36,900 nucleotides of DNA from Escherichia phage SaltyDalty, in sequence record PP925825.1, one strand, 5' to 3'. Below the pieces are notes generated by a model that did not search any database, was not told the origin of the DNA, and was given only the letters and a program-made list of their open reading frames with translations. Position numbers and translations under genes: made by a program. Shown piece after piece: positions 9,489 to 10,023 of the stretch; the first letter of the stretch is position 1; each line of letters begins with the position of its first letter.

Positions 9489-9500
9489 CAGCAAATCTCC

Positions 9501-9526
9501 AATAAAAAAGCCGCACGATGGCGGCT
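9501..9526 (-). terminator. Intrinsic terminator-like hairpin upstream of the GT25-like gene
   Basis: Stem AGCCGC/GCGGCT with 6-nt loop followed on the minus strand by TTTTTATT. Confidence 0.45.
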
Positions 9527-9655
9527 ACTGTCTGAATATCAGGGTGTTACTTCGCTTTAACCCTGGTTAAGGTAAGCACTCAGCCCGTCAGTGGTGGGAC
9601 ACTGGCGCACACATGTGCAGAGTGATGGCTGATTACCTCTGACGAAGGAAAGGAA

Positions 9656-9895
9656 ATGAGTGGATATAGCGTTTCAGAACAGTTTGAACGGATTGATGAC
9701 GTTTTACGCAAAAATTACGCGCTGACAGAACTGCTTGCTCAGACATTCAGCGCATTTGTTGTTGGCTCAAACAACAAAGAAGTTATTGCAAACTTTATTA
9801 AATCAACTTCTGTTAGTGACCCGTCGATGGTTGAGGCTCACACTCATGCAAAAGAAGCTTTACTGAAGATTCTTGACTCCGTAAAAACAAACTAA
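9656..9895 (+). CDS. Hypothetical protein; opposite-strand moron in the late operon
   Basis: 79-aa ORF with strong RBS GAAGGAAAGGAA before ATG, own downstream terminator, AT-rich codon usage, antisense to the surrounding late genes. Confidence 0.55.
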   Translation: MSGYSVSEQFERIDDVLRKNYALTELLAQTFSAFVVGSNNKEVIANFIKSTSVSDPSMVEAHTHAKEALLKILDSVKTN

Positions 9896-9958
9896 TTTTT
9901 CAATACTTGCAGAAGATATAAATATCTTACCTGTAGGCACTCTGAAAAATTCTTGGCT

Positions 9959-9986
9959 GCGGCAACTAGATTTGTTGCCGCTTTTA
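9959..9986 (+). terminator. Intrinsic terminator of the plus-strand moron
   Basis: 8-bp stem GCGGCAAC/GTTGCCGC (9959-9966, 9974-9981) with 7-nt loop followed by TTTTA. Confidence 0.6.
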
Positions 9987-10023
9987 CTCTTAACTAGTGT
10001 TTTGCTTACCATAATTTCCTCTC

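Follow-up and report, generated by a model that had tools for sequence, protein, structure and literature searches.

A putative promoter and covarying 5' leader RNA shared by moron cassettes of lambdoid Enterobacterales prophages

Introduction

Morons are defined as extra DNA of different GC content that carries its own promoter and terminator (Juhala et al. 2000, summarised in PMC3594210). It is mainly through morons that temperate phages alter their hosts. How they are expressed tends to be passed over with the words 'own promoter and terminator', and for the majority of their small proteins no function is known. The morons of the lambdoid phages HK97 and HK022 consist of extra DNA of different GC content, with promoter-like and terminator elements of their own, set within the late genes. 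The locus described here is likewise built: it lies in Escherichia phage SaltyDalty (sequence record PP925825.1), of which we analysed a stretch of 36,900 nucleotides (nt), hereafter the window, and consists of a small opposite-strand gene, open reading frame 79 (ORF79), preceded by a structured 5' leader RNA. The closest described case is the gene 23/gene 22 moron of HK022, one of the original morons, which has the same leader (83% over 124 nt), the same geometry and a convergent small gene.

Our comparisons identify a family of cassettes in which one conserved putative promoter and one covarying 5' leader stand before unrelated small ORFs in hundreds of lambdoid Enterobacterales prophages. 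The explanation that best accounts for the whole, and one that we consider likely, is that positions 9503-10022 of the window form a self-contained moron cassette between two glycosyltransferase genes of an HK97-like prophage, probably of Enterobacter origin, with a Q-independent promoter and a stabilising structured leader.

Results

A conserved module upstream of unrelated small genes

The gene and its leader are the following:

9656-9895, plus strand: ORF79, 79 amino acids (aa), ATG start, from the ORF listing
9644-9649, plus strand: Shine-Dalgarno (SD) sequence GAAGGA, 6 nt before the ATG, with a second AGGA at 9651-9654
9580-9655, plus strand: structured leader of 76 nt, recognised by covariation, RNAalifold and the covariance model R1

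The roughly 150 nt upstream of ORF79 (9504-9655) are far more conserved than the gene itself. When 9495-10023 was compared with phages by megablast, matches were confined to the first ~157 nt and had 79-92% identity (HK633, CharmingMan, ES18, Oslo, SPN3UB), and a more sensitive search added HK022, mEp213, mEp043, Evi, Perceval, FSL SP-016 and SW-37. Each of these phage copies of the block precedes an opposite-strand small ORF, whose protein shares just 8-21% identity with ORF79, against 83-92% nucleotide identity in the upstream DNA; in HK022 this is gene 23, annotated 'moron gene product', with gene 22 convergent to it, and the ORF of ES18 is gene 25, a 'possible moron'. Segments of the block were also used to scan IMG/VR twice, each time with at least 120 viral contigs as the result. 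The pooled loci amount to at least 216 cassettes with at least 133 distinct downstream proteins of 35-130 aa, which fall into at least 21 clusters without detectable mutual similarity, and nearly all of their start codons lie 45-50 nt after a 25-nt core. The window matches this core exactly, has the geometry of helices P1, P2 and P4 set out below, and places its ATG 48 nt after the core. The cassettes sit at several classical moron sites, namely tape measure-M, M-L, I-J, Rz-terminase and lysin-holin.

Representatives of the cargo fall into different PHROGs of unknown function, and the sole Pfam match is one family that corresponds to DUF1883. No representative matched NCBIfam or PADLOC, and no cargo ORF has a known function; the PADLOC scan covered ORF79, its convergent neighbour ORF50 and eight other plus-strand cargo representatives, without a match. 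One minus-strand protein of the partner family described below gave weak PADLOC matches to GajA (E = 0.0011) and PDC-M01B (E = 0.0033), which we treated as noise.

The covariance model R1 was built from P1 and P2 of 97 leaders, the window's among them. Its score is 86.3 bits at 9577-9660 and nowhere else exceeds 9.5 bits, so the window holds a single copy of the leader. A pattern scan of a genome collection was loose (19 specified bases), and R1 recognised 20 true copies among the 100 matches listed; the remaining matches, in unrelated phyla, were sorted out as chance. True copies by R1 come from Enterobacter, Pseudocitrobacter, Dryocola, Pantoea, Yersinia, Serratia, Xenorhabdus and Photorhabdus. 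Of 5426 complete E. coli genomes, 209 have a copy; every one is chromosomal, and none coincides with an annotated feature. The leader segment GAGGGAUGGCUGAUUACCUCUG is identical between ORF79 homologues whose synonymous sites are saturated, a comparison which indicates that constraint on the leader is stronger than neutral drift would allow.

Several prophages or contigs carry two leader cassettes: L042 (314-373 and 4438-4498), L272 (1429-1493 and 2416-2482), and L277/L282, which are one Xenorhabdus ehlersii contig. In Perceval (OV696612.1; locus L132, 1328-1567, plus strand) a 79-aa ORF without annotation stands behind a diverged leader, with the endolysin gene on one side and PERCE_61 on the other. 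The transcriptome paper on the LF82 prophages (PMC9928086) does not cover this copy; since the ORF is unannotated, the published moron transcriptome of LF82 could not score it.

Rfam 15 holds no family for the leader: the whole window at gathering thresholds gave only an STnc100 match elsewhere, and 9400-10100 searched at E <= 10 gave noise alone. Our literature search returned no paper with the core sequences in a phage context and no description of a leader shared by morons. The leader RNA is apparently undescribed.

A covarying leader on the plus strand

The leader comprises four helices:

9580-9585 with 9627-9632, plus strand: P1, UCAGCC paired with GGCUGA
9586-9593 with 9600-9607, plus strand: P2, CGUCAGUG paired with CACUGGCG around the loop GUGGGA (9594-9599)
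about 9607-9618, plus strand: P3, a variable hairpin that contains CACATGTG
9618-9622 with 9637-9641, plus strand: P4, CAGAG paired with CUCUG, an SD-like/anti-SD-like helix that crosses P1

P2 carries most clearly the mark of selection on an RNA. Across 97 distinct leaders that were collected without constraining this helix, 95.4% of cells are paired and six of the eight pairs have changed on both sides; the double changes include A-U to C-G (n = 17), G-C to A-U (n = 17) and U-A to C-G (n = 18). None of 500 shuffles reached the covariation score, and all slid controls scored far lower. In the distant copies from Yersinia and Pantoea the sequence of P2 is unrelated and its pairing is kept; a variant in Xenorhabdus and Photorhabdus does without P2 altogether. 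P2 cells hold 78 G·U against five A·C combinations, or 20 against four when the dominant U·G pair is omitted. This excess of G·U places the RNA on the plus strand, since a minus-strand helix would be mismatched in most copies.

RNAalifold independently predicts P1 and P2, and found nothing when run on a global alignment of the whole upstream block. P4, examined in the unconstrained set, reads (C)AGAGG/CCUCU(G) with 86% pairing, many G·U pairs and double changes at two outer pairs (51-73 and 49-74), and the equivalent position in Perceval reads AUGGGG/CCCCAU. Because the loop of P4 contains the 3' strand of P1, the two helices imply either a pseudoknot or alternative folds. The minimum free energy (MFE) fold of the window's leader forms P1, P2 and P3, and only a weak four-pair helix touches the SD. 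Together, the compensatory changes and the strand-specific G·U pairs indicate that the conserved module encodes a structured RNA read from the plus strand.

The CCUC-bearing 9-mer GAUUACCUC matches the 3' end of 16S rRNA, GAUCACCUC, at eight of nine positions. A leader peptide, AUG-GCU-GAU-UAC-CUC-UGA, was considered and rejected: its SD-like GGAGG stands 1 nt from the AUG, the AUG is ATA, ACG or AAG in several copies, and the stop is not conserved.

The putative promoter region and its palindromes

Upstream of the leader we distinguish the following elements, from alignments of the copies:

9527-9579, plus strand: conserved promoter region, its function deduced from the alignments
within 9527-9579: conserved motif CTACTG-N9-CAGG
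9540-9565: imperfect inverted repeat CAGGGT...ACCCTG, with an inner sequence that varies between copies
9545-9550, plus strand: weak -35-like TGTTAC
9568-9573, plus strand: -10-like TAAGGT

Among 118 distinct upstream sequences, with positions counted from the T of TCAGCC (UCAGCC in the RNA), T occurs at -12 with a frequency of 0.86, A at -11 with 0.92, T at -7 with 0.87 and G at -14 with 0.81. This is the signature of a sigma-70 -10 hexamer, and makes promoter function for TAAGGT a well-supported inference. The conserved hexamer would set the start of transcription at UCAGCC or within two bases of it. The CTACTG-N9-CAGG motif and the inverted repeat are absent in the Xenorhabdus variant, which keeps just the -10 and the P1/P4 core.

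The earlier note, made from the letters of the window, had pointed to two palindromes as possible regulator sites, CACATGTG at 9610-9617 and TTAACC-ct-GGTTAA (TTAACCctGGTTAA) at 9557-9570. Both are present, but the alignments do not support either as a regulator site. CACATGTG is not conserved and lies in a hypervariable stretch within the transcribed leader; it is the window's version of P3, and hence not an operator. TTAACCctGGTTAA overlaps the promoter spacer and the -10, and is only partly conserved as a palindrome.

By inspection we also set aside a sigma-54 promoter, TGGCGC-N-TGC (9603-9618), whose spacing is off by one here and whose -12 GC is absent in ES18 and SPN3UB, and a LexA box at CTACTGTCTGAATATCAGG, which reads CTG-N9-CAG, not the N10 of the consensus, in all variants. 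An IHF-like match, TATCAGGGTGTTA, lies at 9537-9549. At its right end the insert also repeats the -10 region nearly unchanged in inverted form, TTAAGGTAAGCA (9567-9578) and TGCTTACCATAA (10003-10014) being 92% complementary; this second copy overlaps the start of ORF50 and may be due to chance.

ORF79 and its product

The earlier note had described ORF79 as a 79-aa frame without a transmembrane segment and with a strong ribosome-binding site, all of which agrees with the ORF listing, the lack of a transmembrane stretch and the AAGGA-type SD 6 nt before the ATG; its condition that the moron reading would fall if the ORF were not conserved as coding in related genomes is answered by the homologues, in which coding is clearly conserved. 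We found 24 of them (E from 2e-41 to 2e-13; 54-100% identity) in Enterobacter, Salmonella, Pseudescherichia, Pantoea, Yersinia and metagenomes, the closest database copy, at 100% identity, being from Enterobacter hormaechei. The family shares the core RKNYALTELLAQxFSAFVV ... AHxHAxxALLKILDSV and has variable ends. Its members occupy three different tail-gene sites. Differences between the window's gene and those of Yersinia, Pantoea and Pseudescherichia number 16-28, 17-22 and 45-50 at codon positions 1, 2 and 3, and the ratio of nonsynonymous to synonymous substitution rates (dN/dS) is 0.15-0.27 where it could be computed, with synonymous sites saturated or nearly so. Such a substitution pattern marks ORF79 as a real gene under purifying selection, not a chance frame.

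Structure prediction, which the earlier note had proposed for this protein, gave a confident AlphaFold2 model of three helices (6-38, 41-50 and 56-75) with a predicted local distance difference test (pLDDT) score of 84.4, and the product is predicted to be a small, soluble, helical protein of the cytoplasm. Foldseek found no fold match in the PDB at E <= 0.001 (best E = 1.5), searches of Pfam, PHROGs, PADLOC and NCBIfam returned no family (only noise in Pfam, DDE_Tnp_1_assoc at E = 0.02), and tblastn against phages gave no function. The representative of the 100%-identical cluster (P0001) is recorded as 106 aa, with a start ~27 codons upstream that falls in the leader/promoter; this is probably a wrong start call.

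Terminators and the convergent ORF50

Three features bound the cassette:

9503-9526, minus strand: intrinsic terminator AGCCGCC-AUCGU-GCGGCU followed by UUUUUU, from the terminator scan, at the cassette's left edge
9959-9986, plus strand: intrinsic terminator GCGGCAAC-uagauuu-GUUGCCGC followed by UUUU, from the same scan, inside the minus-strand ORF50
9860-10012, minus strand: ORF50, 50 aa, convergent with ORF79, with its SD AGAGGAAA immediately behind the stop codon of the gene for the 485-aa glycosyltransferase

The left terminator adjoins, just upstream, the ribosome-binding site and TTG start of the 197-aa glycosyltransferase gene. Its stem covaries between copies (GCCGC/GGCGGC against GCCACC/GGTGGC), and the annotation of ES18 lists the equivalent hairpin as a putative terminator. 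The plus-strand terminator, which the earlier note had proposed with an 8-bp stem, was found by the scan as described: the stem at 9959-9981 has eight pairs, six of them G-C, and runs into TTTTACTCTT. Between 9300 and 10200 there are three terminator-like sites, against 1.0 +/- 1.1 in shuffles. Most other cassettes have an analogous hairpin 3' of their small ORF.

ORF50 overlaps the 3' end of ORF79 by 36 nt, with the hairpin of the plus-strand terminator within its coding sequence. To the eye it is similar to the 46-aa ORF that partners the ORF79 homologue in L138, and it may be a genuine gene of the late strand that belongs to the insert; family scans of the Pfam and PADLOC type gave no match for it. 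In other cassettes, 82 of 156 distinct convergent partners are members of a single family (...DFTLEGYxQRA...AAQxQAA), so that this partner is frequent, not universal, and there too the plus-strand terminator hairpin lies inside the coding sequence. A separate cluster of ten partners matches Pfam DUF1327, the annotation given to gene 24 of ES18. The window has a partner of neither kind, ORF50 alone occupying that position.

Extra DNA in a late operon

The neighbouring features of the window are these:

10024-11481, minus strand: 485-aa glycosyltransferase-like gene
8901-9494, minus strand: gene for a 197-aa 'glucosyltransferase', with a TTG start
14955-15767, minus strand: gene for the antiterminator Q
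minus strand: genes for holin, endolysin, an HNH protein, terminase, portal, protease and capsid/head proteins
minus strand: a 183-aa ORF
14534-14737, minus strand: STnc100-family RNA, 59.3 bits in Rfam against a gathering score of 47

The window is of the type of an HK97-like (Hendrixvirinae-type) temperate phage or prophage, with head and terminase genes 91-95% identical to those of HK97, Enterobacter phage LAU1, Fostie and others. The antisense orientation of ORF79, claimed in the earlier note, is borne out: Q, holin, endolysin, the glycosyltransferases, HNH, terminase, portal and head proteins are without exception encoded by the minus strand. Since the Q, lysis, glycosyltransferase and head genes share that strand, the cassette is embedded in the Q-dependent late operon and points in the opposite direction.

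The two glycosyltransferase genes of Fostie overlap directly, and its homology to the window stops at ~9477 and begins again at ~10023, leaving ~545 bp extra in the window (roughly 9477-10022). Fostie is viable without this DNA, which argues that the insert is dispensable. Other phages fill this site differently: mEp390 has an HNH gene there, AsXd-1 another ORF, and HK633 and CharmingMan have small ORFs on the opposite strand. GC content is 0.38-0.43 over 9600-10100 against 0.53-0.60 in the flanks. An IMG/VR contig (L060) matches the cassette at 99.4% identity to the right of a sharp boundary at 9504 and has a different left neighbour, so the cassette moves as a unit whose left edge is the minus-strand terminator. 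Measured against the definition of a moron, the locus has extra DNA at a conserved position in the gene order, a differing base composition and its own terminator; as for a promoter, 118 distinct copies show a conserved TAnnnT hexamer 6 nt ahead of the leader, and the -35 is poor. The autonomous opposite-strand moron proposed in the earlier note is thus supported by the extra DNA, the dip in GC content, the terminator, the -10-like hexamer and the kinship with HK022 gene 23.

Some observations concern the surroundings of the cassette. A junction sequence of the glycosyltransferase genes (CTT(T)ATGTTT..CCACCAG-like) occurs on both sides of the insert, at 9471-9492 and 10026-10043, and the first codons of the 197-aa gene resemble a copy of the end of the 485-aa gene; the duplicated junction could be a trace of the cassette's entry. 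Both glycosyltransferase-like genes have distant DNA matches to 238 Mycobacterium phage records, with weak Pfam support (Glycos_transf_2 at E = 0.0012, TAGT at E = 0.19), and either a virion protein or DNA is possible as their substrate. The HNH gene at the cassette site of mEp390 is annotated as similar to gp56 of mycobacteriophage Corndog. The STnc100 match lies directly downstream of the Q gene and upstream of the holin gene, a position which suggests a promoter-proximal late leader RNA of the phage.

Discussion

A proposed portable expression platform

We propose that the cassette, from left to right a minus-strand terminator, promoter, structured leader, SD, small ORF and plus-strand terminator inside a convergent late-strand ORF, works as a compact unit of expression. 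Host sigma-70 RNA polymerase would start at about 9580-9582 from TAAGGT, despite the poor -35, and the unit, not being Q-dependent, could be transcribed both in the lysogen and on incoming DNA. Nascent UCAGCC would pair at once with GGCUGA to form P1, enclosing P2 and P3, while the SD-like GAGG would pair with the CCUC of GAUUACCUC in P4 and so hold CCUC off the true SD. The outcome would be a compact, possibly pseudoknotted 5' fold in which the 5' end is shielded from decay and the true SD GAAGGA is open, a portable stabilising and translation platform that would yield a stable, well-translated mRNA whatever ORF follows. Transcription would end at 9959-9986. In lytic growth the unit would be expected to be silenced by the strong antiterminated late transcription that crosses it in the opposite direction; in the lysogen, the terminator at 9503-9526 would keep non-antiterminated minus-strand transcripts from the downstream late genes.

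Cargo turns over very fast between cassettes, and from this pattern we suggest that ORF79 acts in conflict between phages or between phage and host, by exclusion, defence or counter-defence. We offer this role as a possibility that may well not hold: no cargo ORF was assigned a known function in the family scans, which makes the conflict role a guess. Several further points weigh against the moron cassette with a stabilising leader as we reconstruct it. P4 is weak in the window, with U9623 for the usual G and five pairs. P1 never varies, so that covariation cannot test its pairing, and a few variants break the terminal pairs. The window's leader has an unremarkable folding energy (z = -0.5). 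A strict sigma-70 scan called no plus-strand promoter here, and with the poor -35 this means that we infer promoter function from the conserved hexamer. Lastly, a near-invariant stretch of ~20 nt would be needless for a simple stabiliser, and suggests a sequence-specific partner.

A further and tentative picture, which we rate as doubtful, is that the leader would represent an undescribed class of cis-regulatory RNA, a compact and possibly pseudoknotted 5' element that bears a mimic of the 16S 3' end, is read by a conserved host factor and serves lambdoid Enterobacterales prophages as a portable platform of control and expression for fast-turning small 'dark' proteins.

Alternative explanations

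The alternative that survives best would make the leader a regulated switch, in which a conserved host RNA-binding factor acting on the invariant GAGGGAUGGCUGAUUACCUC and the SD sets translation according to host physiology, with CsrA as the best candidate. The ~20 nt remain near-invariant from Xenorhabdus to Enterobacter while their surroundings change, and the cargo differs between cassettes, so that any regulator would have to be encoded outside them. As to CsrA itself, GGA occurs in most P2 loops and most SDs, and the usual GAGGGAUGG, which also carries GGA, is close to the CsrA consensus ARGGAUG from systematic evolution of ligands by exponential enrichment (SELEX). The leader is nevertheless no more than a candidate CsrA target; in the window GGA is found in the P2 loop GUGGGA (9594-9599) and in the SD (9647-9649), but the middle motif is lost, GAGGGAUGG reading GAGUGAUGG here. 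Several copies have P2 loops that lack GGA (UUUGGGG, GUUUUA and CCGACA), and AAGGA is in any case a common SD. We consider this regulated switch unlikely.

A second alternative holds that the conserved 150 nt serve mainly the minus strand, as the 3' end of the late transcript or as a processed small RNA (sRNA), perhaps antisense to the 5' untranslated region (UTR) of the ORF as in a type I toxin-antitoxin system. Its attraction is that a minus-strand terminator with a covarying stem belongs to the conserved block, that the inverted repeat at 9540-9565 is kept despite its variable inner sequence, and that 9504-9577 gives a weak isrK-like Rfam alignment on the minus strand. The G·U to A·C count in P2, 78 to 5, speaks directly against it, leaving the minus-strand helix mismatched in most copies. 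The isrK alignment reaches 15.6 bits against a gathering score of 50 (E = 0.79), the terminator's U-tract is absent in some contexts, and the MFE of the inverted repeat did not decide between plus and minus strand. A type I system would call for a small hydrophobic or membrane toxin and an antisense sRNA with a promoter of its own, whereas ORF79 is predicted to be a soluble three-helix protein with no transmembrane stretch and most other cargo is likewise predicted to be soluble; inspection found no conserved minus-strand promoter. We therefore regard a mainly minus-strand function as very unlikely.

Equally improbable is a recombination handle, in which shared flanks (the leader on one side, the partner gene or a GCGGCC...GGCCGC hairpin on the other) let recombinases swap the small ORF: unrelated ORFs do lie between similar flanks, an identical cassette does occur in different contexts with a sharp breakpoint at 9504, and the glycosyltransferase junction sequence does stand on both sides of the insert, but selection on RNA is evident from compensatory changes in both P2 and P4 as well as from the strand-specific G·U pairs, -10, leader, SD and ATG stand in the fixed geometry of an expression signal, the cassettes have no recombinase linked to them, and exchange is more likely a by-product of the conservation.

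Significance and comparison with known systems

With the moron cassette and its structured leader as the preferred reading, R1 becomes a handle of sequence and structure on hundreds of unannotated small genes, of which the 79-aa ORF of Perceval is an example, and the leader offers a concrete RNA element for roles in mRNA stability, translation or control by a host factor. The cassettes define a pool of rapidly exchanged proteins that are candidates for exclusion, defence or counter-defence. Should the leader prove to be a cis-regulatory RNA class, it would flag conflict genes in the manner of a shared promoter or marker and so permit their systematic discovery; should it be only a generic stabiliser, the locus would be an ordinary moron with a comparative footnote.

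Among described RNAs, isrK of the Gifsy-1 prophage (Rfam RF01394), an sRNA, resembles the locus in its place in a prophage late region and in a weak alignment of the minus-strand hairpin and terminator; it differs in scoring below the gathering threshold, in aligning with the terminator part only and in lying on the strand opposite to the covarying leader. The HK022 moron, the nearest relative by leader, carries a protein of another cluster, gp23, which is near phrog_6806 whereas ORF79 has no PHROG, and it sits between tail genes I and J, while the window's cassette sits between glycosyltransferase genes near terminase. The gene 25/gene 24 pair of ES18 (NC_006949) shares the upstream block together with the putative terminator, and likewise combines a small ORF on the opposite strand with a convergent gene; its gp25 (95 aa) shares 8% identity with ORF79, the site lies between tail genes M and L, and the convergent gene is a DUF1327 member.

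Stem-loops of the type found in the ompA 5' UTR stabilise mRNAs, and leader helices that pair SD with anti-SD serve translational control. The leader described here resembles both, having a helix within 2 nt of the proposed 5' end and an SD-like/anti-SD-like pairing just upstream of the real SD. Unlike leaders of the ompA type, however, it is near-invariant in sequence across four families of Enterobacterales, is common to unrelated genes, and has helices that cross.

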